Shown: positions 3,963 through 51,100 of the stretch, one piece after another
Numbering within the stretch: the first letter of the stretch is position 1
How the letters are laid out: each line of letters opens with the position of its first letter
Origin: a virus
Lineage: Duplodnaviria; Heunggongvirae; Uroviricota; Caudoviricetes
Length of the DNA: 64,000 nucleotides
Virus record (IMG/VR): IMGVR_UViG_3300011904_000029
Coordinates: 70,312-134,311 of that record
Strand: one strand, 5' to 3'
Program-made: the position numbers and the translations under genes
The notes under the pieces: model-generated
Databases searched by the model: none
Seen by the model: only the letters and a program-made list of their open reading frames with translations
Told to the model about the DNA's origin: nothing

Positions 3963-4004
3963 TTATAACACTCCTTAAAATATTTGTTTTATTAGCTTAT
4001 AAAT

Positions 4005-4220
4005 TTAACCAAGTTGCTTTAAGTTTTTTAATAAACAATAGTTAGGTGTAGAGCTTCCAACTCTTTCAACAATAGCAACTTTAATTCTATTACTATTAGC
4101 TTTTTCTGTATTAGTTGCTTTCTTAATTGCTTCATTAAGATTACCTGTAAAATCTTGAATCCAGACACCATCTACATAACCGTTTGTTTCGTTGTAAATT
4201 TGAATAAGAGAAAATTTCAT
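4005..4220 (-). CDS. small hypothetical protein
   Basis: ORF track; GGAG RBS. Confidence 0.7.
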   Translation of the reverse strand: MKFSLIQIYNETNGYVDGVWIQDFTGNLNEAIKKATNTEKANSNRIKVAIVERVGSSTPNYCLLKNLKQLG

Positions 4221-4267
4221 CTTCAATACACTCCTTTTATTGATAAATTAATGGATTCATTCTGTTA

Positions 4268-4540
4268 TTAATTAATGGCCGGATATTTGCTTAATTTTTC
4301 CGGTAAATCCAGCACGTTTCTCAATTTTGTATTAACGTATAAAATGGCATCTTTTCGGTTTGTAGCATATGATCCAATCTGAATGCCTGTTAAAGAATCT
4401 GATACATTCCAACCAGCGCCATCATAAATAGTATGAGCAACTAATTTTCTGCCTGTATTTTCGTCTATATAGGAATAGCCTTCTTTTTCTCTTATTCCTT
4501 TTGCAGTCGCAACATTAAATTTAATTTTTTTAAGATTCAT
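4268..4540 (-). CDS. hypothetical protein
   Basis: 90-aa ORF; GGAGG RBS. Confidence 0.75.
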   Translation of the reverse strand: MNLKKIKFNVATAKGIREKEGYSYIDENTGRKLVAHTIYDGAGWNVSDSLTGIQIGSYATNRKDAILYVNTKLRNVLDLPEKLSKYPAIN

Positions 4541-4589
4541 TTTTTCATTCCTCCAATTTAATTTTATTTCTGTTTAAGTGCTATTTGGT

Positions 4590-4772
4590 TTATTCACTTC
4601 TAATAAAGTCATACATGCCATCTAATAAATCTAATAAGTGTACGGCCTCATGTCTTTCTAAAAGTTCATTGGATAGTTCTTCATGCTTTTCATTAAATTC
4701 AATTCCCTGGTCTCTTAAAGTGTATAAGAGTGACATGTAAATCATTTCAATTTGTTCTTTTTGGTAGTTCAT
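4590..4772 (-). CDS. small hypothetical protein (MNYQKEQ...)
   Basis: Start moved to the ATG at 4772, which follows an AAAGGAG RBS. Confidence 0.7.
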   Translation of the reverse strand: MNYQKEQIEMIYMSLLYTLRDQGIEFNEKHEELSNELLERHEAVHLLDLLDGMYDFIRSE

Positions 4773-38412: not shown

Positions 38413-39441
38413 GTGAGTAAGAAGTTTCAGCGTGTAAAGTATTTTACAAAAGAGAAAAAAGATAAAATTAATCCTGATAATATTAAGCTCTATGATAAAT
38501 ATTTACGATCATCCACTATAAAAAATAAAGATGTGAAAAATACTACATATAAGGTTTATCAAAATTATATGTCTCATTTTTTAGTTTATCTATCAGAAGA
38601 GTGGGATAATGTAGGGCTATATGATGAAGAATTTATGGAAAATGCAGTAGATATTATGGAAGGGTTTATTGGATTTTGCCAAGATGTTTTACACAATAAC
38701 AAAAAAGTAATAAATACTAAAATTAGTACAGTTAGTTCTTTTTATATGTGGAGCTTAAAGCGTGGATTAATAGACAGACATCCGTTTGACAAAAAGCTTG
38801 AAAGAATGAAAGGTGCTAATGATGAAAAAATAAAAGAATCATATTTTCTCACTGAGGATCAGATTAAGGAAATTGAAACAGCCTTACTAGACGAAAAGAG
38901 ATTTGATTTCCAGGATAGGCTTTTATGGAACATAGCTTTAGATTCAGCAAATAGAGTTGGTGCTATAGCTAGATTAACCATTTCCTCTCTTAATTTAGAT
39001 GAGATGGTATTTGAAGATATTAGAGAGAAACGTGGAAAGATTGTAGAAGTTGCCTTTGAAGAAGACACTAGAGAGCTTATTCGGCAATGGCTAGAGATGA
39101 GAAAAGAAATGGATAATTTAGAGGTAGATTCTTTTTTTGTTACCAGATACAGAAATGAGTGGCAGCCAATGTCATATGGAACCCTACAAGCACGTATAAA
39201 GAGAATTGGTCAAGCTATTGGCATTGATGATTTTTACTTTCACACTATAAGAAAAACAAAACTTAACTTACTATATGAACAAACTGGAAATATTGACATG
39301 GTGGCTGAGTGGGCGAATCATGAGTCAATTGAGACTAGTAAACGCCACTACATAAAACCTAAATCGAAAGCTGAGTTAAGACGTGAAATGAGAAAGTTGA
39401 TTAAAGAAAATAAAGAAAAGAATAAAGAAGGTTCACAATAA
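38413..39441 (+). CDS. tyrosine recombinase within the tail module (YomM-like)
   Basis: Catalytic R (SANRVG), H-x-x-R (HTIR), H (ANHES) and Y (RHYI). Confidence 0.85.
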   Translation: MSKKFQRVKYFTKEKKDKINPDNIKLYDKYLRSSTIKNKDVKNTTYKVYQNYMSHFLVYLSEEWDNVGLYDEEFMENAVDIMEGFIGFCQDVLHNNKKVINTKISTVSSFYMWSLKRGLIDRHPFDKKLERMKGANDEKIKESYFLTEDQIKEIETALLDEKRFDFQDRLLWNIALDSANRVGAIARLTISSLNLDEMVFEDIREKRGKIVEVAFEEDTRELIRQWLEMRKEMDNLEVDSFFVTRYRNEWQPMSYGTLQARIKRIGQAIGIDDFYFHTIRKTKLNLLYEQTGNIDMVAEWANHESIETSKRHYIKPKSKAELRREMRKLIKENKEKNKEGSQ

Positions 39442-39722
39442 AATTACACTTTTATTTATCAAATAAATACAAAAAACCTTTTTGAGTTGAGTATCTGAGT
39501 TAATCGGATACTCAGTTGAGATTGGTTACGTGTTGAAAATCTAAGGGAATGTAAGCTAATATAAGAGAGAAAATCCGAGATTTTATGAAATAATCCGAAA
39601 TTAAGGGAAATATAGCGATAAAATATGGTATAATCGAGACAACAAAGGGTAATACTGCACATATACATGTTCTAAGTGGGGTGATGTATATGTGTGACAA
39701 GAAAAGTGAGGAGGAGAAAGAT

Positions 39723-39848
39723 ATGGCTCTACCAAAAGAACAAATATTAGAGAAAAAGGAGAGTCTTGATATGAAAAAAATTGATGCTATCTTAAAACGG
39801 GGAATCAAGCGATACGATAAGGCATTAGCCAAGCTTGCTAAAAATTAA
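39723..39848 (+). CDS. minimal Phd-like antitoxin, 41 aa (MALPKEQ...RYDKALAKLAKN)
   Basis: Missed by the ORF track; GAGGAGG RBS; TAATG coupling to doc; RYDKALAKLAK C-terminal helix. Confidence 0.7.
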   Translation: MALPKEQILEKKESLDMKKIDAILKRGIKRYDKALAKLAKN

Positions 39849-40237
39849 TGACCGAAAAACTAACACCTGAAGAGTTACGATATGTCCATCAAAAAATGCT
39901 TGATTTGTACGGAGGTCTTCCAGGAGAAAAGGAACCTGGGATGATGGATTATATTTGTGAAAAGCCATTCTTTTTTGGTGCTTATCCTACCTTGTTTGAA
40001 AAGGCTGCTGTAATAATGATTGCAATTGCAACCGGTCATTATTTCGTGGATGGAAACAAGCGAACTGCAGCCATGTCTACTTACGTTTTCTTGATGAAAA
40101 ATGAATTTGAGTTAATTGTATCGGATGATGATCTATTTGAAATGGCAGTGCGTGTGGCTCAAAAAGAAATTAATCAAGAGTCACTAACCCAATGGCTATC
40201 GGATAATTCTGTTCAAGTTGATATAAATGAATTATAA
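39848..40237 (+). CDS. doc: Doc/Fic-family toxin
   Basis: HYFVDGNKRTA Fic motif; 129 aa. Confidence 0.9.
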   Translation: MTEKLTPEELRYVHQKMLDLYGGLPGEKEPGMMDYICEKPFFFGAYPTLFEKAAVIMIAIATGHYFVDGNKRTAAMSTYVFLMKNEFELIVSDDDLFEMAVRVAQKEINQESLTQWLSDNSVQVDINEL

Positions 40238-40239
40238 AA

Positions 40240-40262
40240 AACCTCACAAATCAATGTGAGGT
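40240..40262. repeat. 23-bp palindromic element, copy 1 (copy 2 at 40935-40957)
   Basis: aacctcacaaatcaatgtgaggt vs aaccttacaaatcaatgtgaggt, 22/23 identical. Confidence 0.85.
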
Positions 40263-40293
40263 TTATTTATTTGGAATGAGTTATATATGAAAT

Positions 40294-40322
40294 AAAGAGC
40301 CTGAAATGGCTCTTATTTTTTT
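40294..40322. terminator. bidirectional terminator; related copies at 40985-41011 and about 41627-41655
   Basis: aaagagcc-N-ggctctt-T-run repeated three times. Confidence 0.7.
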
Positions 40323-40498
40323 TATGAGTTATTTATTTGTCCTTTGGCTTCTTTAGTTAGAATTTCTTCTGCATGTTTTTTTAAAACAGTTATGATGTAA
40401 TTTTGCAGACTTCTGTTATCTGCTTCAGCTAATTTTTTTAAGTCAGAGTGTAAATCCTTTGGGAACCTTACATTAAACGGAACGATTTCTTTGGCCAT
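40322..40498 (-). CDS. Arc/ribbon-helix-helix regulator, 58 aa (MAKEIVPFNVRFPKDLHSDLKKLAEADNRSLQNYI...)
   Basis: Missed by the ORF track; AAGGAG RBS; RHH pattern F-x-V-R-x-P...A...RSL. Confidence 0.85.
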   Translation of the reverse strand: MAKEIVPFNVRFPKDLHSDLKKLAEADNRSLQNYIITVLKKHAEEILTKEAKGQINNS

Positions 40499-40640
40499 TT
40501 AATTTCTCCTTTATAAGTGTTAGTACCATCATGATACCATAAACATATTTAAGTTTAAATAAAATTTATGATTGACACATAAGGTTCCAATATGGTACCG
40601 TTATGGTATACAAATAATACTATTAAAGGAGACGATGAGG

Positions 40641-40976
40641 ATGACGGCTATTAAAGAATTCGAATTGATTGAGGGGAAGAAGGGTGTAAGAGATAAGTAT
40701 ATTAGCAGAACAGAAGTGCTAGATAGGGTTAAAGAATTAAGCTTACTTCCCTACAAGGATACGGCTACGACAGAGATGGTCGCAGAGTATTATGGAGTAC
40801 CTAAGTCGACAATAGACGCCTTAGTTTTTGATAATAGAGCTGAATTGGTTGAAGATGGTTATGAGGTGAAAACAGGAAGTAAATTAAAGATATTTAAAGG
40901 TTACTTGCCAAAAGAAAGCAACCTCAGTAACAATAACCTTACAAATCAATGTGAGGTAATTTACTTAGAGGAATAA
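40641..40976 (+). pseudogene. C-terminally truncated paralogue of the antirepressor-like gene at 42201
   Basis: High similarity to 42201.. for about 90 aa, then runs into the 23-bp repeat and stops. Confidence 0.65.
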
Positions 40977-41001
40977 GGATATGTAAAGAGCCGATTGGCT
41001 C

Positions 41002-41451
41002 TTATTTTTTTAATGGAGAGTGCTTATCAAAGTAACTTATTCTGTCAGAAATCTCTTCCATCTCTAAATCTGTAAGAGAGTCATCTAATTCAAAGGTTGG
41101 ATTTCCATTATTATCCTTAGACAAGAGGATTTTATTATTTCTAACCAGATAACCTACAAATTCGATTAAGTTGTCCCTAGTAGGCTCTTCATATTTTGGA
41201 ATATCAACTTTGACATAGTTAGGATTTTCTTCAATTGTAAACAATTCTTCTACAGGCATGTCTAATTCTTTGCTAACTGAAATTAAGGTATTTATGTCAT
41301 ATCTTGTTTGATTATCAAATCTACTAATTGTAGGCTCTTTAACACCTACAGCTAATGCAAAATCTTTTTGAGTGGGATACTTATCTTTATATTTTTGCTG
41401 AGATAGTATCTTTTTTAATTGAGGTTTGGCAATATATTTAGTTTCGCTCAT
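41002..41451 (-). CDS. XRE/Cro HTH regulator
   Basis: TQKDFALAVGVKEPTISRFD...ISVSKELDMPVEELF. Confidence 0.85.
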   Translation of the reverse strand: MSETKYIAKPQLKKILSQQKYKDKYPTQKDFALAVGVKEPTISRFDNQTRYDINTLISVSKELDMPVEELFTIEENPNYVKVDIPKYEEPTRDNLIEFVGYLVRNNKILLSKDNNGNPTFELDDSLTDLEMEEISDRISYFDKHSPLKK

Positions 41452-41648
41452 TTTCACCATCCTAAGTGTTATGCTTCAATTACATATTACTAATCGAGAA
41501 TTACTTTGTCAATATTGCTTGACTTATAAATTACTTATACGTAATATGGAATTATCGAAACTTGCACATTACATATTTGTAATTTATAGAGGAGGGTGAA
41601 TAATTACAGAAGGGTTAAGTGTATAAAAAAAGAGCCTATTGGCTCATC

Positions 41649-42038
41649 TTATTTACTTTCTTTATATTTTTTAAGTGTAGGTGATAATATCTCATGTTGC
41701 TTTTTAAGTGCTTCTTCTAATTTCTCTTGATCATCTATTTTAACTGGATTTAGTAGCTGCATTTTTTCATCTAAGGTTAATTCTTCTAATGATTCTCTTA
41801 TATTAGATTTATGAAATGGATCTTCTTCAAAGACATCAAAAAGTTCGTCAATACACTTCAAGTTTAATGCTTTAGAAATTGCAATCAAATGTACTGACTG
41901 ATGCTGTTTGTTTCTGTCAAATTTAGAAATTGTCCCTTGTGGAATACCAGTTAATTCTGAAAGCTCAACTTGTGTCATATTTCTTTCTTTTAGTATTTTG
42001 CCTAGTCTTGGTACAACAATATAATTAGATTGAATCAC
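41649..42038 (-). CDS. XRE/Cro HTH regulator
   Basis: LGKILKERNMTQVELSELTGIPQGTISKFD; GTG after an AAGGAGG RBS. Confidence 0.85.
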   Translation of the reverse strand: MIQSNYIVVPRLGKILKERNMTQVELSELTGIPQGTISKFDRNKQHQSVHLIAISKALNLKCIDELFDVFEEDPFHKSNIRESLEELTLDEKMQLLNPVKIDDQEKLEEALKKQHEILSPTLKKYKESK

Positions 42039-42200
42039 TTGCAACCCTCCTTCAATATACAATATACACTAATCTATAAATAATAAGCAAGGCAAAAAAA
42101 ATATTTGTATAATCTATTGACTATTCCTTATGGAATATATTATAGTTTGTTTAACAGCAAGAATTGGCATGATAATTCTTTAATAAAGGAGAAGATGAAA

Positions 42201-43112
42201 ATGACAGTTATTCAAGAACTTGAATTGATTGAAGGAAAGAAGAATGTGAGAGATAGGTATATTAGCAGAACAGAGGTGTTAGAGAGAGTAAAAGAATTAA
42301 GCTTACTTTCTTACAAGGAGACGGCTACGACAGAGATGGTCGCAGAGTATTATGGAGTACCAGAATCAACGATAAGAGCAGTTGTATTTGACCATGAAGA
42401 AGAGTTGTTGAGTGATGGTTATAATGTCGTAAAAGGTGATGGCTTAAAGGTTTTAAAAGGTAAGTTGCTTGAAGCAACTAACCTTAGCAGTAAGATTAAA
42501 TACGCCAGACAGATTGCTATCTTCCCACGTAGAGCTATCCTCAGAGTTGGAATGTTGCTAAGGGATTCAGAAGTAGCCAAGCAAATCAGGACGTACTTAC
42601 TTAATGTAGAGGAAATCTCGTCTACAGAACAGAAACGAGAAGCTAGGAAATCATCATGGACAAGTGAAGAAGAAATGACAATACTTAACGCAGTTCTTAC
42701 TAGTGTGAATAATGGTGGCACATTAAATGAAGGATTAATCAAAGCAAGCAAGATGATTAATAAGAAATACTCAACTGTGGCTGGTAGATGGCATTATAAG
42801 GTTAGAAACTTCGCTGATAAAGATGTATTAGAAAAAATAAGAAACAATATAGGAAGAAGTAATAAAAAAGAAGTAATCACTCAACCTGATTACCCGAGTA
42901 TGGAATTAGCCTATCAGATTGATAAAGTTTATCGTGAGAATGGTAAATTAAAAAATGAGGTAGAATCGCTAAGAAAGATGAATAAGCTTATGAAAGAAAA
43001 ATATCACAAGCTTAAAGAAGAACATAGAATTGTCATGAATGTGATTGGTTCTGCTATGAAGGCACATACAAGAGATGTATTGAGGCGTGAAATATACAAT
43101 GGCAAGCGATAA
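42201..43112 (+). CDS. phage antirepressor-like DNA-binding protein
   Basis: RTEVLERVK...TTEMVAEYYGV...FPRRAILRVGMLLRDSEVAKQIRTYLL; Myb-like C-terminal part (WTSEEE...RWH). Confidence 0.65.
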   Translation: MTVIQELELIEGKKNVRDRYISRTEVLERVKELSLLSYKETATTEMVAEYYGVPESTIRAVVFDHEEELLSDGYNVVKGDGLKVLKGKLLEATNLSSKIKYARQIAIFPRRAILRVGMLLRDSEVAKQIRTYLLNVEEISSTEQKREARKSSWTSEEEMTILNAVLTSVNNGGTLNEGLIKASKMINKKYSTVAGRWHYKVRNFADKDVLEKIRNNIGRSNKKEVITQPDYPSMELAYQIDKVYRENGKLKNEVESLRKMNKLMKEKYHKLKEEHRIVMNVIGSAMKAHTRDVLRREIYNGKR

Positions 43113-43178
43113 TTTGAAATAAAAGAACGTAATTTCATTATTGGTACAAGCAAATATCTCTATCAGGAGGAGATCGTA

Positions 43179-43415
43179 ATGTCAACGATCACAAAAAACA
43201 AATACACAGTTTATTCCAGCGTCAAATTATTAATTGCGACTGAAGTTTATGCTCAAAATGAAGAACAGGCATTTACAACGGCACAGATGGAATTAGATGA
43301 TATGTTAGCGATAAAGAATGTACATATGAGTATGGAACATGTCAATGGAGAAGTAGTCACTCCAAAGGTGTGTGACTTCTTTATAAATGTTGATGATGTG
43401 TATGAGAGTGAATGA
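43179..43415 (+). CDS. small hypothetical protein
   Basis: AGGAGG RBS. Confidence 0.7.
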   Translation: MSTITKNKYTVYSSVKLLIATEVYAQNEEQAFTTAQMELDDMLAIKNVHMSMEHVNGEVVTPKVCDFFINVDDVYESE

Positions 43416-43599
43416 TGATATTTGTTAGAGAATGATTCGTGTATATTATTGAGGAATGTGATGATGAGGATGGTGGCTGGATGGCGATATTGTCTTACAT
43501 TATTTTCTTAGATATAAACTAATATAAAGTATCCTTTCTTTCCTTCCATATATTTCATACAATGGTATTACATATCAATTATTTTGAGGTGATGTCTGT

Positions 43600-43959
43600 A
43601 TGAGAAAAATATTAGTTAGCGCATTAATTTGTTTATTGTTTTTAATTGGATGCTCTAGTGTCAATGGTGTGGATAAAAAGTTATATAATAAAGTTGAAGA
43701 TTATATTTCCATTATAGTTGCTGCTCATAATGGAAACAGAGATGAGTTTAACGAATTAAATGATGAAATGTATGATTTCATTAACACTAACTTTGACAAG
43801 TTTGAAGATGACATTGAAACAGGGAAGTTTATTGCGCATTTTCAGTTATTATATTTATCAGTTGATGATGGGAAAAATTCACTAAAAAAAGAAGAAGAAA
43901 ATGTGTTTGAAGAAGAATTAGAAATACTAAAGAATCAATATGGAATTAAAGTAGAATAA
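43600..43959 (+). CDS. lipoprotein
   Basis: Signal peptide with LIGC lipobox; followed by a terminator at 43958-43990. Confidence 0.8.
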   Translation: MRKILVSALICLLFLIGCSSVNGVDKKLYNKVEDYISIIVAAHNGNRDEFNELNDEMYDFINTNFDKFEDDIETGKFIAHFQLLYLSVDDGKNSLKKEEENVFEEELEILKNQYGIKVE

Positions 43960-44096
43960 GAAGTGCTCCTCTCAGCACTTCTTTTCTTATTTTCCATCTT
44001 TCTCATCCATACTCGACAAAAATATTATAATTTTCTATCTAATCTCCATTTCCTATTTCTATTGTCGTATAATGGTAGAGTATGGGAGGAGATTAT

Positions 44097-44702
44097 ATGG
44101 AGACTAAAAAAGACTTAGAAATTAAAAGTCTTTCAGAAGATCTAGATTTTTCTTTTGCTAGTTTAGAACAGGTAGTAAAAAAGCCAATAAAAAATAAAGA
44201 TGTTTATTTGAAACAATTAAGATTAAGAAAAGAGTTTATAGACTGGACAAAAGACAAATTTTTGTTGTTAAGAGGTTCCGCTCCAAAACATGTCTATAAG
44301 AGAGATATCTTCTATTGTAAATTAGGCGTGAATGTAGGATCAGAACAAAAATTAAAAAGACCAGTTGTTGTTTTACAGAATAATAGAGGTAATGCTTCTT
44401 CTGAAACTACAATTGTTGCTCCAGTTACTACACACAATAGTTGCGTAATATATGAAGATAAAGGTCTTAAATATTACAAGTTCTTGGACTCTGATGGAAA
44501 AGAAATAATAAAAAAGTTAGATTATTATGAAGTACCGCTTGAATTAGAGCCATTTTCAAAAAAGAATATTACTGGCTATATAAACCTTGCACAGATTAGA
44601 ACGATTAGTAAGAAAAGATTATCAAAAGGCTTTGTTGGAAAAATCACCATTGAAAATGATGAAATCATTAAAGCAGCAGTAATAAAATTACTTTTTGGTT
44701 AA
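44097..44702 (+). CDS. PemK/MazF-family endoribonuclease with an N-terminal extension and no adjacent protein antitoxin
   Basis: LGVNVGSEQ..KRPVVVLQN..GN..S.TTIVAPVT and LAQIRTISKKRL motifs. Confidence 0.85.
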   Translation: METKKDLEIKSLSEDLDFSFASLEQVVKKPIKNKDVYLKQLRLRKEFIDWTKDKFLLLRGSAPKHVYKRDIFYCKLGVNVGSEQKLKRPVVVLQNNRGNASSETTIVAPVTTHNSCVIYEDKGLKYYKFLDSDGKEIIKKLDYYEVPLELEPFSKKNITGYINLAQIRTISKKRLSKGFVGKITIENDEIIKAAVIKLLFG

Positions 44703-44708
44703 AATATG

Positions 44709-44737
44709 TTGACTTATTGTTATAAAGTATGTATGAT
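44709..44737 (+). promoter_or_regulatory. sigmaA promoter of the downstream RNA
   Basis: TTGACT-N17-TATGAT starting 7 nt after the PemK stop. Confidence 0.75.
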
Positions 44738-44743
44738 AAGGAT

Positions 44744-45148
44744 ACAACTATTAATGAGTCCTTGAGCTAAGCTTAAGGCAATTGTTTACTTCAGAGTGGC
44801 GGTGCTTATGCATCGCCCTTAATATTATAAAAACAATTTGATCTAATAAGACTAGAAAATAATAAATGCTTTTAGACATTTTCGAATCTCTAAAAGTTGA
44901 ATTTAAAACATTAGAGAGTCTTTCTTCGGAAAGGTTTTCTACTTTTATTAATATGAATGTAGATAGCACATGAGATAGGTTATGGCCTATAGTGAGTCGT
45001 GTGAGAAGGAGACACAAGTAAATGTGTCTCCTTGGTGCGTTATTAGTCGAGGATATCCAATGCAAGTAGGGATGCCCTTTAATATTTTATTAACAAATAT
45101 AAAATAAATAATACCTAAAGAGTGTCATATTTTATGGCGCTCTTTTTT
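44744..45148 (+). ncRNA. candidate structured non-coding RNA of about 400 nt
   Basis: Promoter and terminator; no RBS-led ORF; stems ccttgagc/gcttaagg, aattgttt/aaacaatt, ggcggtgc/gcatcgcc, ctttc-ttcg-gaaag and aaggagacaca/tgtgtctcctt. Confidence 0.6.
45117..45148 (+). terminator. intrinsic terminator 30 nt before the tape-measure start
   Basis: aagagtgtcata/tatggcgctctt stem plus T-run. Confidence 0.75.
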
Positions 45149-45178
45149 CATTTGTCTTAGAAAGGGGTGTTAATAAAT

Positions 45179-48100
45179 TTGAGTGATGAATTACAAATAA
45201 GGGTTGTTGGTAGCTTAGACTCTAATGCTACACAACAAAAAATCCAACAACAATTAAATAAAATTAAAGATACAGCTATCGAACTAAAGATTGACAACAA
45301 AGCTTTGTCTATAATAAAAGAATTCAATGATGGATTTAAACAACTTGAAAAAACTGCAAAGAACAGTGGCAAAGTCATTGAAGAAGCAATTATGCCTGAC
45401 GGCACTAAAGTAAAACGAACTTTCTTTGATGGATTAGATAAAGAATTTGCTGAGACAACCACAAAAGCAAAAAACATGGGTAAGACCATGACCGATTCTT
45501 TTGGTAATGCTAAAACTACAGTTGATCAATTAAGAGAAGGATTTAGTAAATTAATAAGAGAAAGCGAAAGGTTTAATGCCTCTCAACAAAAAATATCTGG
45601 AACAATCCAAGCACAAAATGATTTGGGTAATAGAAAGATTAAGATTAGCACAGATCATAATGGTGATGTTAGAGGATATAACGTTACACAGGATCATAAA
45701 AAAGAATTAGATTTAATTGAGCAAATGGCAAGAGCGAGAGAGAAATCTGCTCTCAGAGTTCAAGCTGAAGAAAGGAAATTATTAGAAAATCAACAAAAGC
45801 AGATAGGGATAAATGAGCAGATAACAAGAGAATTAAGAGAGCAATTAGAATTAAAGAAAAGACAAGCGCAAATAAATGTATCGAATTTAGAAAGACGATT
45901 CTCCGGTAACATTCCAAGAGAAACACAAGATTCATTAAATAAATATATAGATAGCTATAAAAATTTAAATGAAATGACTCCAAATGTTCAAAGCAAAATG
46001 AAAAATTTGGATATGACTTATAAAGAACTATCTGAAACAGTAAAGACTGCCGGAAATAAGACAGTTAGTTTTGGTGAACAATTAGCGATAGCTTTTAATC
46101 GTATTCCGATATGGATGGTTGGAATGGGTTCTTTCTACGGCGCAATTACAAAAGTAAAAGACGCTATTTCTCAAATTATAGAAATTGACTCTCAATTAAC
46201 TGTATTAAAAAGGGTTTCTAATGGTCAAATAGATATCAACAATGCTCTAGAAGAAAGCATACGTCTTGCAGAACAGTTAGGGAACCGTATTGCTGACATC
46301 AATGAGGGTATGATTTCGTTTGCGAGACAAGGGTTTCGTGGCGATGAATTAAATATGATGACTGAATATTCGGTATTGATGAGTAATATCAGTGACATGA
46401 GTGTTGATGATTCAGCATCAGCTTTAACTGCGGCCTTAAAGGGCTTTAATATGGAGGCAGAACGTGGGATTCATGTGGTTAACGCTCTCAACGAAGTGGA
46501 TAAATTTTGTCCCTTATGTTAGTAATAGCATAAGCAAACTCCGAATATGCTGGAAAGCCGTCATACAGCTTTTAGTAGTAGTCATTTTTGGAAACTTAAT
46601 TGACATCTAAAAATCTAAAAGACAAGGTGGCAATCAGCAGAGATAGCCCTAAGTCAAGTACATTGATAAGGGAAGCTCTCAGAGACTATCAAGGAGCATC
46701 CTTTGAGGATGATGGTATAGTCCAGTCCCCCTCTTTTGAAAGAGTGTTAAAGTATCCCGAAAGGGAGGGTAAAAACGAACAATTATAGCGTGACTACTCA
46801 ACAGCTTGCTGAATCTATAATGCGATCTGCCGGGGCAGCATCCACATACGGTAAACTTAATGCCGCCTAGTGCAGTAATGCATTAGTGAAAAGTCAGCCA
46901 TATCGGTGGAACTCTGGAGGCAGACAACACCGAGGAAAGACTATTTTACGATTATGGGTAAATTGTATAAGCATGTATTGACTTGGGAGGTCTTTACATG
47001 TTAATTGTTTGTACATATTGTAGCAAGAAATTAAATAAAAAACCATCACAAATCAAAAGAAGTAAAAACCACTTTTGTGATAAAAAGTGTCATAATAAAT
47101 GGATGAGAGGTAAGACTCGCCCCGAAAAACAAAATAAAGTTAAGCATAATTGCCATCAATGTGATAAACCTATGGAAGTTGAGAATTATAAGTATAAACG
47201 ATTTTTAAATGGGGAAATAAAAAATCTATTTTGCAATAAAAATTGTTTAGCAGATTGGCAAAGAGTAAATTTTAAGGGTGAGAAAAGCTCCAAATTTAAC
47301 AGGATAACAAAGAAATGCGGATTTTGTGATGAGGAGTATAGTATTCCTAAAAGCAGAGAAAATACGTCTAAATACTGCTCTAATGAATGTCATTCAAATA
47401 GTAGAATTGAAGATATTGTTGTAGAATGTAATTATTGTGATTCAATGTTTACAAAAAAGAGAGCACAGATAAAGGATCGTAATTTCTGCTCCAAGAGCTG
47501 CTCTTCTAAATGGAATTCTGAAAATAACAACTTACAAGTTGCAAAAGAATGTTTTGCCTGTAATAAAAAATACAAGGTTCATAGAAGCAGAGCTGAATCA
47601 TCAAAGACGTGCTCTAGGGAATGTCATGGTATTTGGTTGAAAGAATACTATTTCAAAACTGAAAAAGGTAAGCAACATTTAATTAATAATGGGGTTAAAT
47701 CTCAATTGACTCAAAAACATTCTGATACCAAGCCTGAAAGAATTATAAAAGAGTTATTGATACATAAGAATATCGAATTTATTCCACAACATCTGATGTA
47801 TGACAAGTTTGTTGTGGATTTTTATTTGCCAAAAGAAAATATAGTAATAGAGGTTTTTGGGGATTACTGGCATGGTAATCCTCTTTTTTATGGCGAATTA
47901 GGAACAATGAAGCCATTAACAGAAAAACAGATTAAGCAGAAAAATAAAGACAAAGCAAGGGAAGCATACTTGAAAAAGTGTGGACATGCGTTTTATATAT
48001 TGTGGGAACATGATATATATAACAATTTAGAAGAAGTAATTGAATTTTTATAACATGCTTATATATTTACCGTAATCGTAAAGTAGAATCCGTAACGACT

Positions 48101-51100
48101 ATGTGTTCATAGTGGTGACATTATGAGCCTACGCTGACCAACCTTTTCTCCCATTATTAAGGTTGAAGATAGAGTCTGAACTACGCCTATAACCTGGAAG
48201 TGAAAGCGTAGAGGTAAGCAGAAATGACTTACCCCTTCTATTTAGTAGAAGAGTAACAAATTGGTTAGTTTGGAAAAAAGTATCGGCTATACAACTGCGA
48301 TAGCTCAAGTTACCCGTGAATCTGGTAAAAAAAATTTGCCCTATATACTAGCAATAGTATATATGCATCCTTTAAATTGCTGGAAACCCCTTAGAGCCTA
48401 TTAAACTACAACGTAACTGGGAACGGTAAGCGTGAATGTTTGAAAATTAATAGGATTGGGCAATCAGCAGCGAAACCTCAATAACGAGGGACGTTCAACG
48501 ACTATAATAAGGACATCCTAATGGGATGAAGGGATAGTCTAGACCCTTTAAAATACTGTGAAAACAGGGGTATTTAACGAGTGTCATAGGTAACAGCTTG
48601 AAATCCATTTATTCTCGTATCACTAGTATTGATGGTGCGGTTGACCTTCTTAATTCAATTGGAATTTCTGTTAAAGAATCTTCTGGAGAAATGCGCAAAG
48701 TAGAAGATATCATTCAAGATTTGAGTTTACAGTGGAGTGGGCTTTCAAAAGAAATGCAGCAGAATCTTGGTCTTCAAATAGCAGGGCGCTATCAACTCAG
48801 CCGTTTTCTAATCCTTATGAACCAATATGATGAGGTCTTAGCTTCTACTGAAGCTGCTACCAACTCAGCCGGATCAGCATATAGGGAAAACGCTGAATAT
48901 TTAAAATCGTATGAGGCTAGGTTAAACACAGTAAGAAACGAATTTACTCAGGCTGCAATTGCAATGCAGAAGTCTTTTGTTGGCGATGGCATAATTGCAT
49001 TTGTGGAAGTTGGTACTACTTTCTTACAAACTTTAACCAACATCATAAATAAAGTTGGTCTACTTCCATCTGCCTTTGGACTTGCAACAGCAGCTACAAT
49101 GCTTCTTAATCGTAGTTTCAGAGAAACTGCTATGATTAATGGTATGTATTTTCTTGACTTCTTAAAAAATCTTCCTCAAAACTTAAATAAAGCTACAATT
49201 GCCACTGGCGCTATGACAGCAGCAACAAATACCCAGGCTGTAGCTATGAATGTTGCAACTGTTGCAGGAAGAGGATTGGGAACAACAATGACATTTTTAG
49301 CGGGCATAGCTCTACCTGTCGCTGCATTCATGGCTTTGGGTACTGCAATATCCTTTGCTACCAGTAAAATTATAGAACATAGACAAGAACAGAAAGATCT
49401 TAAAGAAAAGTTTGAAGAAGATACAAAAAAGAATATAGACGCAATCACGAACAACAAAGAGCAGGTAGACGAATTAATTTCATCATATAAAGATTTATCA
49501 TCTGCGGCCAATGAAAGAAACTTAAATGTTGATGAAGAACAAGAGTATCTTTCTATTCAACAAGAATTAGCTGAATTGTTTCCTGGATTAGTGAAAGAGA
49601 TAGACAGTAAGGGGCAAGCTCATATAAAGTCTGCTGAAGGAATAGATCAGGAAGTCGAAGCAACAGAGAGGTTACTGTCCCTTGAAAGAGAACGAATAAT
49701 TAACGAAGCAGAAGATAATTATTCAAAAAGAATTGATTCTCTAAAAGATTATAAGAATGAAATTGATGAACTTGAAAGAAGATTGGAATCACTCTCAGAA
49801 TCAGAAGAGAAAAACAAGACTCTATGGAAAGATGATCAGATAGCAGAGAATCATAAAAAACTGCGAAATGAATTAGAAAGAGAATTGATATATCAGCAAA
49901 CTCTTTATGCAAATGCTGCTCAGGGGATTTCATCAGAAGTTGAAAATGTGTTTAGCGCTACTGTCAATTCTATGTCTGGGTTTACTCCTCAATTAGAAAG
50001 TGCAATTAATACAATTTTTTCATCTATTGATTTTTCTAGCCAAAAATCTGCTGAAGAAATAAGTAATATTGAAAAACAGATGGCATCATTTGCAAAAGAA
50101 TTAAATGATGCGTTTAAAGCAGAAGATAGAACAAAATTTAGTCAGATTGCTGATGAATTAAAGGAATTTTTAAGTGCTCAAGGTATGAGTGAGTCTGCTT
50201 TAAACGGATTGAATATATCTTATAATGATTTAAAAACAGCAGTTGAGAACTACAAGGACGCAAAAGAAGAGGCAAATAAAATTGATGAAGAAGGAATAGA
50301 AAACACTGAAGCTCAAATGGAAGAAAACGCTGAACTTAAAAAGAGCTACGATGATGCAATTGCCAACATAAAATCACTAAACGAAGTAGTTAATGAATTA
50401 AATGAAGGTCATGGTTTATCTGCTGATAAAATCGGCTTTTTAATGGAAAATTATGAACATCTTCTTCCATATCTTAATAATGAAACAAAACTGCGTCAAA
50501 AAATTCAAGAAGAATTACTCAAAGAAGAAAGAATTGCTAAAAATGTAATGCTCAATAAGCTCTCATATAATGAGCAATTTTATAGGAATACTATTAATGC
50601 AAATAATGCCTATGTTAAATCAATGCATAGTAAATATGGAATTGATCTAAAATCATTTAAAAATCTAGCTGAAGCTAAAGCAGCAGTAGAAGGAAAATTA
50701 CTAAACACTCTTTCTGCAAGCTGGAATTCTTATTACAGTTCAGTAGCTCATGCTTTAGCATCTATTCGAGCAGCAACAGGTGGAATATTTGGTGCAGTAG
50801 TTGGCGGAGCAATGCAAGCTTATTCATTTGCTCAAGACTATACGTCATTTATGAAACCGTTGGTAGATTTCAATAACATTTTCCTTGATCAAATTGGAGA
50901 TCTCACAGACGGAGCAATTGCTAAGAATGGATTATCCGATGCCACTAAAAAGGGAACAAAAGCTCAAAAAGACGCCAATAAAGAATATGAACATTCTATT
51001 TATGTATCCGATAAATTCAAGCAAGCTTTAGAAAAACTAAATCTTCAATTAGAAAAACAAAAAGCATTACAAGAGTCTCTTCCTAAGCATTCTAAGAAAT

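Follow-up and report, generated by a model that had tools for sequence, protein, structure and literature searches.

Introduction

MazF is a textbook type II toxin. In the type II MazEF/PemIK systems, among them EndoA-EndoAI of B. subtilis and MazEF of S. aureus, the toxin is paired with a protein antitoxin whose gene is adjacent and co-transcribed. To our knowledge, protein-binding RNA antitoxins have so far been found only for ToxN-like families. Rfam lists, as the pemK motif (RF02913), a candidate structured RNA that is associated with pemK-family genes in Bacillota; it lies upstream of short pemK genes, and Weinberg et al. reportedly proposed it in 2017 as a candidate RNA near pemK genes. 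Type III systems combine an endoribonuclease of Kid/MazF-like fold with an adjacent modular RNA that is present in excess over the toxin, and they have no protein antitoxin (PMC7781912). Finally, Sma is a MazF-like protein without a protein antitoxin that resides on mobile elements and for which anti-phage activity has been shown, according to the papers that cite its description (2022, Cell 185:3248, via PMC12409344 and PMC12829572).

The locus analyzed here resembles ToxIN/AbiQ, CptIN and TenpIN in that an endoribonuclease of MazF-like fold, without a protein antitoxin, adjoins a structured, modular RNA in mobile and phage-defense contexts. However, in ToxIN, CptIN and TenpIN the RNA lies upstream, is followed by a terminator before the toxin, and consists of near-identical repeats of 34–36 nt, whereas here it lies downstream with its own promoter and consists of 2 to 5 degenerate leader-hairpin units of about 40 nt. 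Furthermore, the toxin matches Pfam PemK_toxin only and not ToxN_toxin; it falls in none of the ToxN/AbiQ, CptN or TenpN families, and we noticed no tandem-repeat array upstream of it. Because both the toxin family and the RNA layout differ, the cassette is type III-like in its logic and stands outside ToxIN, CptIN and TenpIN. A first-pass annotation of this DNA had proposed a type III-like system with reversed gene order. The reversed order holds, the RNA partner being downstream in every examined locus that encodes this long form of the toxin, but the toxin itself is a MazF/PemK protein and not a member of the ToxN family.

With type II MazEF/PemIK the locus shares a homologous toxin domain in which the catalytic Arg and Thr are kept. 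In contrast to those systems, it has no MazE/PemI gene and no adjacent, co-transcribed protein antitoxin gene of any other kind, its toxin is ∼85 residues longer, and a dedicated RNA gene follows. Like Sma, the toxin is MazF-like, lacks a protein antitoxin and is found on mobile elements; unlike the present cassette, Sma is described in the citing papers as a single protein, and those descriptions mention no RNA partner. RF02913 differs in that it matches neither this region of the window nor the homologous loci, and in that the RNA described here is downstream of long-form genes.

Results

Organization of the toxin-RNA cassette

The 64,000-nt stretch of DNA that we analyzed (the window) derives from a 137-kb provirus record whose gene order and content are SPbeta-like, and whose relatives show a YonO-type context. 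The tail operon contains an accessory island that extends from a tyrosine recombinase gene to the tape-measure gene, which starts at 45167. The toxin-RNA cassette, ∼1.1 kb in size, is the final unit of this island; the preceding part (38413–43959) also encodes a 335-aa phrog_2286 protein. The features are as follows.

38413–39441: tyrosine recombinase, start of the accessory island
39848–40237: Fic/Doc gene, accessory island
41002–41460 and 41649–42062, minus strand: two divergent Cro/C1-type HTH genes, accessory island
43600–43959: lipoprotein-like gene directly upstream of the toxin, with a lipoprotein-type signal peptide
43958–43983, plus strand: terminator of the lipoprotein-like gene, a 10-bp stem followed by a T run
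44068–44073, plus strand: candidate −10 box (TATAAT) of a putative weak toxin promoter, read from the sequence
44084–44091: Shine-Dalgarno (SD) sequence GGGAGGAG, preceding the toxin ATG at 44097
44097–44702, plus strand: long-form MazF/PemK toxin ORF, 201 aa, Pfam PF02452
44709–44737, plus strand: sigma-A promoter of the small RNA, TTGACT-17-TATGAT, whose −35 box starts 7 nt past the stop codon
44738–44825, plus strand: conserved core of the small RNA, with compensatory changes, recognized by covariance model R1
44826–45116, plus strand: lineage-specific 3′ extension of the RNA, unconserved in the two nearest relatives (L003 and L004)
45117–45151, plus strand: intrinsic terminator closing the RNA region, a 13-bp stem (45117–45145) followed by a T run

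The terminator of the lipoprotein-like gene forms the left boundary of the cassette, and the RNA terminator immediately precedes the tape-measure gene. The block around the candidate −10 box of the toxin aligns among the window, L003 and L004, and the best full sigma-A match 5′ of the toxin reaches only 9/12 (44000–44028). Apart from this weak promoter-like block and the SD, we noticed no further conserved element upstream of the toxin.

Neither side of the toxin carries an ORF for a MazE/PemI, AbrB- or RHH-type antitoxin. Within the RNA region and next to it are small ORFs of 51, 35, 41 and 104 aa; none has a Pfam match, and neither these ORFs nor the genes flanking the cassette are conserved in the homologous loci. 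These observations, together with the Pfam match of the toxin, bear out the first-pass view of an orphan PemK/MazF-like nuclease without a small antitoxin ORF.

The tape-measure gene beyond the cassette (45167–46522, resuming at 48598) is interrupted. Within the interruption lie a group I intron (48317–48562, 71.7 bits, Rfam) and a gene for a 356-aa zinc-finger protein with a Vsr/DUF559-like endonuclease domain (46983–48053). In a Niallia prophage (L004), whose tape-measure gene carries an SLT domain, the cassette occupies the equivalent slot, shortly 5′ of the tape-measure gene with one gene between.

The toxin is a long-form MazF

The 201-aa toxin matches Pfam PemK_toxin over aa 69–198 with an E value of 1.1e-17 (64.7 bits relative to a cut-off of 23.1). 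When the PDB is searched with a profile built from 22 family members, the structures closest to the family are EndoA/MazF of B. subtilis (4MDX, 1NE8, 4ME7) and MazF of S. aureus, with E values of about 4e-17 to 5e-17. An AlphaFold2 model of the toxin (mean pLDDT 86) has a MazF barrel at residues 70–200, with an insertion of ∼25 residues, extra strands and a C-terminal helix. Ahead of the barrel, two long N-terminal helices (4–27 and 34–59) form a helical hairpin (residues 4–59), of which the first helix is acidic. The hairpin and the barrel insertion make up the length by which the protein exceeds classical MazF. The Foldseek matches listed at the top are all MazF chains, with probability 1.00, and none of them is a type III toxin; 9G7K and 4MZM are MazF structures matched by fold. 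The profile match and the barrel fold both place the protein in the MazF/PemK family.

R88 does not vary among the 22 family members, and position 111 holds T or S in every one, so that the catalytic Arg and Thr/Ser are kept throughout the family. In an alignment to 4MDX, the counterparts of these two positions in B. subtilis MazF are R25 and T48, which we take to be the catalytic residues of that enzyme. The toxin family, the fold and the catalytic residues are thereby established. Because of the profile match, the exclusively MazF fold matches and the kept Arg and Thr, we regard the toxin as a genuine and probably active MazF, catalytically competent in appearance, and place it outside the ToxN family.

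The long form is rare. At E ≤ 1e-30 it is represented by 21 clusters (50% identity) among 1.84 billion proteins, and it is carried by about 11 of 185,579 species genomes. Since most loci belong to this small family, the number of independent lineages is modest.

A promoter-driven, modular RNA follows the toxin gene

The near-consensus sigma-A promoter downstream of the toxin stop codon is present where the first-pass annotation had placed it, and the transcription start of the RNA is expected near 44743–44746. Positions 44740–45150 fold at −117.5 kcal/mol (z = −6.8 relative to 100 dinucleotide shuffles); the region is ORF-poor and ends in the 13-bp terminator, in agreement with the multi-stem, terminated RNA described at first pass. 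That annotation had also assigned the toxin a structured RNA of ∼400 nt. A dedicated RNA is indeed there, but because conservation with L003 and L004 stops past the tail of hairpin 2, the conserved RNA is only ∼88 nt (44738–44825), and the 3′ remainder of about 290–320 nt is lineage-specific.

The conserved core consists of a 5′ leader (UACAAC...AAUGAGU), hairpin 1 (44760–44778), the linker UUUACUUCAGAGU, hairpin 2 (44798–44817) and the tail CCCUUAAUAUU. R1, the covariance model described below, scores this core at 82 bits (E 2e-16) and finds no further site elsewhere in the window. The core has no ORF of at least 20 aa; the 3′ extension has a 35-aa and a 41-aa ORF, neither of which shows a clear SD on inspection or occurs in L003 or L004.

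The basic RNA module is ∼40 nt long and comprises an 8–9 bp hairpin with a single-stranded leader, UAC(A/U)...GAGU, on its 5′ side. The 3′ extension contains three degenerate GAG(U)-plus-hairpin modules (44912–44941, 44975–44990 and 45006–45033), whose hairpins, at 44920, 44975 and 45006, are each directly 3′ of GAG(U). Thus, 5/5 hairpins of the window RNA are directly preceded by GAG(U), with P about 4e-7 given 10 GAG triplets in 379 nt. With its filters off, R1 detects no second full unit in 44826–45200. On the strength of the GAG(U) placement, the RNA is a degenerate array of repeated leader-plus-hairpin modules, which corrects its initial description as non-repetitive. A different repeat had been noted at first pass, a GCCCTTAATATT tail at 44815 and again, as CCCUUUAAUAUU, within the 3′ extension at 45074. 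Both copies are present, but 14% of shuffles match as well locally, and we do not treat the repeated tail as a signal beyond chance. The signals that do rise above chance are the conservation among homologous loci, described below, and the GAG(U) placement.

The RNA accompanies the toxin across unrelated genomic contexts

We compared about 20 distinct loci that encode long-form homologues with 39–66% identity; their sources are Bacillaceae prophages, Clostridia, Tissierellia, Thermoanaerobacterium, Desulfosporosinus and metagenomes. Four long-form relatives at greater distance (P0045, P0048, P0054 and P0117) lie outside this comparison. In all about 20 long-form loci examined, the toxin stop codon is directly followed by a promoter, an RNA with two hairpins and a terminator, and a gene-free gap of 250–640 nt follows the toxin in every homologous locus examined. 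RNA promoters match the consensus at 10–12 of 12 positions in 14/17 loci, where the −35 box is located between −3 and +47 nt from the stop codon; toxin promoters mostly score 8–10 of 12. This higher score of the RNA promoters fits an excess of RNA over toxin.

In three of the loci (L026:3082, L030:2463 and L004:4609), the RNA promoter −35 box overlaps the toxin stop codon, starting 3 nt before the ORF end. Because of this overlap, the toxin and RNA genes are hard to separate in these loci.

The neighbors of the cassette differ across at least 12 contexts, which include DUF4046, integrases, a large serine recombinase, CBASS, IS fragments and other toxin-antitoxin pairs; the settings are mobile elements and defense islands. 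No small ORF is conserved beside the toxin in the long-form loci examined. The first-pass annotation had named homologues without a conserved downstream structure as evidence that would count against it. We found the opposite, a covarying two-hairpin RNA in every long-form locus examined, and this, together with the lack of a conserved protein partner, supports a dedicated RNA partner for the toxin.

RNA classes, covariation and specificity

A covariance model built from DNA downstream of homologous genes had been suggested as a check on the RNA. Such a model (R1) was obtained for the class of RNAs to which the window belongs (class A: the window, L003, L004, L006, L026, L027 and L029–L031). 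Ten class A units align over 88 positions, RNAalifold gives two hairpins of 8–9 bp, and compensatory double changes occur at 16/17 base pairs. A second class (class B: L007, L009, L012, L018, L022 and L028) has two promoter-driven units, each of the form UACAAC-N-hairpin (GCU loop)-UCAAC-hairpin. L110 and L015 are intermediate between the two classes, and L110 carries four ACAAC-UUU-NAGC-hairpin modules. Unit number differs among clades, with two or four leader-hairpin units outside the clade of the window. The existence of an RNA gene with its own promoter and a covarying structure is thus established.

The leaders share short motifs. Those 5′ of hairpin 1 carry UAC(A/U)(A/U) in nearly all units listed, often as UACAAC, and the variants in L110 and L015 start with ACAAC. 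This motif is located 5–8 nt past the −10 box, where it coincides with or adjoins the expected RNA 5′ end. Leaders 5′ of hairpin 2 carry UUAC(A/U)U, CAC(A/U)U or (U/C)CAAC. Class A hairpins 1 and 2 come directly after GAGU or a near variant (GUGU, GCGU), and in the L029/L108 lineage UAGCA takes the place of GAGU before the hairpins.

Both R1 and a second covariance model (R2) give zero matches in about 140 loci encoding ordinary 110-aa short-form PemK. R1 matches once per genome in two complete host genomes, in each case at the toxin, and in 0/150 other Clostridia genomes. Outside its training loci, R1 finds L108 (51 bits) and, weakly, L110; part of this testing used loci related to the training set. 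L109 and L111 are missed by R1 and R2 and have the same two-hairpin layout by eye. The models are therefore specific to long-form loci, and the linkage of RNA and toxin is established as exclusive and independent of context, with no protein partner.

Class B toxins form one clade (98/95 support) with L110 as its sister. Because RNA class follows toxin phylogeny in this way, the RNA and the toxin are inherited as one unit. The match between the two shows linkage and not co-adaptation, since kin share labels.

The Rfam scan that had been proposed, including the pemK motif, gave no match to the RNA. In Rfam 15, no family matches it in a whole-window scan at gathering scores or in a permissive scan of 43900–45300. 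RF02913 in particular (gathering score 34.8 bits) has no match in 43900–45300 at E ≤ 10, its best matches across the whole provirus reach 13.5 bits and are located away from the RNA, and it matches none of 15 homologous loci at the gathering score or of 7 loci at E ≤ 5. A blastn search of a phage collection with the region gave no match, and tblastn found only short-form MazF in packed operons, with no match spanning the N-terminal extension. In IMG/VR, an alignment scan detected one long-form locus, identical to L029, and a single-protein scan was without a match. Three family members had no match in PADLOC-DB v2, even at E ≤ 10, and full-text literature searches gave no description of an RNA partner of a MazF/PemK toxin.

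Discussion

We are highly confident that the cassette of a long-form MazF and a dedicated, conserved small RNA is real. We favor the reading that it is a type III-like toxin-antitoxin or abortive-infection module in which the RNA serves as a direct, pseudo-substrate antitoxin, and we put the probability of this reading at roughly 0.55. Such a reading suits what the loci have in common: a nuclease lacking a protein partner, a structured modular RNA whose promoter is stronger than that of the toxin, strict linkage between the two, and settings on mobile elements or in defense islands. We infer RNA binding, neutralization, cleavage at UAC and a role in phage defense; they would fit together as follows. 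The toxin would be transcribed from its weak promoter, and the stronger sigma-A promoter would make the small RNA in excess. The RNA would bind the toxin directly, as in type III systems, with the UAC(A/U) leader filling the MazF substrate groove as a pseudo-substrate and the hairpin held by the extra protein elements peculiar to this family. The toxin may also cleave transcripts with several units at their leaders, in the way that ToxN cuts ToxI. If RNA synthesis dropped, through loss of the element or through transcription shut-off by an infecting phage, the RNA would decay and the stable nuclease would be freed, leading to growth arrest, abortive infection or prophage addiction.

We propose the pseudo-substrate mode because the UAC(A/U) leaders resemble known MazF sites: B. 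subtilis and S. aureus MazF cleave U^ACAU, and the site of D. radiodurans MazF is UACA (PMC7781912). The toxin ORFs show no depletion of UACA or ACAAC, and for that reason they lend the proposed recognition site no independent support. A more specific version of the preferred reading is tentative, and we consider it somewhat more likely to be wrong than right. It holds that a bona fide MazF is held by a small RNA and not by MazE; that the RNA units begin with the end of the toxin's own cleavage product (ACAAC...) beside a clamp hairpin; that the cassettes constitute a new type III-like family of RNA-antitoxin abortive-infection systems; and that Sma-like “single-protein” defenses may be protein-RNA pairs.

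The main alternative, which we consider unlikely, is a self-contained, Sma-like MazF defense nuclease whose N-terminal hairpin keeps it inactive until a phage cue, with the RNA as an accessory that acts as a sensor, decoy substrate, stabilizer or regulator of activation. The extension is confidently modeled as a two-helix hairpin whose acidic first helix recalls the acidic tail of MazE; this helix could act as an intrinsic inhibitor, in which case no RNA antitoxin would be needed. The occurrence of the cassette in defense and mobile contexts also suits a defense nuclease, and its authors, cited in PMC12409344, describe Sma defense as working from one cloned gene. However, a self-contained nuclease fails to explain why a strongly promoted, covarying RNA is found beside the toxin in every locus and nowhere else, and the family members searched are without a match among the defense systems of PADLOC.

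A role of the RNA in the synthesis of the toxin, and not in its activity, is improbable. Such a role might take the form of type I-like pairing with the toxin mRNA, or of a 3′-UTR element for stability or termination. Because the toxin stop codon and the RNA are not separated by a terminator, toxin transcripts should read into the RNA region and carry the RNA as a 3′ UTR, as this explanation would have it. On the other hand, a near-consensus promoter serves the RNA itself in 14/17 loci, and the RNA is on the same strand as the toxin, hence not cis-antisense. In 8 loci the small RNA has no excess complementarity to the toxin translation start (z ≥ −0.08), which makes antisense control unlikely and leaves protein binding. 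Least probable of all is that an independent small RNA of mobile elements, or a series of terminators or insulators, merely travels beside the toxin, or that the region encodes a tiny protein antitoxin: the unconserved 3′ 320 nt and the 35- and 41-aa ORFs in that part could be taken this way, but the core varies by compensatory base changes and not by codon, those ORFs have neither a family match nor counterparts in L003 and L004, and the RNA-toxin linkage is exclusive across unrelated contexts.

If the preferred reading, a MazF neutralized by its adjacent RNA, is true, a MazF-proper toxin with an RNA partner would blur the boundary between type II and type III systems, and a small new family would join the known type III families. 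It would also account for those MazF genes of prophages and defense islands that pass as “orphan” or “single-protein”, and it would provide a compact pair of a sequence-specific RNase and an RNA inhibitor.

Genomic settings of individual loci

Several homologous loci have features of their own. In L006 (1239–3635), the cassette adjoins a CBASS operon encoding a patatin effector, E2-CBASS and a SMODS/DncV-like cyclase, which is a defense-island setting; the RNA region of this locus comprises two units of class A plus a further module, at 978–997, that resembles hairpin 2. L007 has a second long-form PemK gene (L007:1–235; 199 aa, cut by the locus end) ∼3.7 kb upstream of the one at 4001–4612, and this contig may hold two paralogous cassettes. 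The long-form cassette of L009 (3037–3559) is beside a short PemK gene with a DUF2281-type partner on the opposite strand, and that of L015 (4397–5040) is beside Fic and PIN genes. In L012 (726–1481), nine tRNA genes form an array directly upstream of the integrase that flanks the cassette, an arrangement that suggests an integrative element inserted next to a tRNA cluster.
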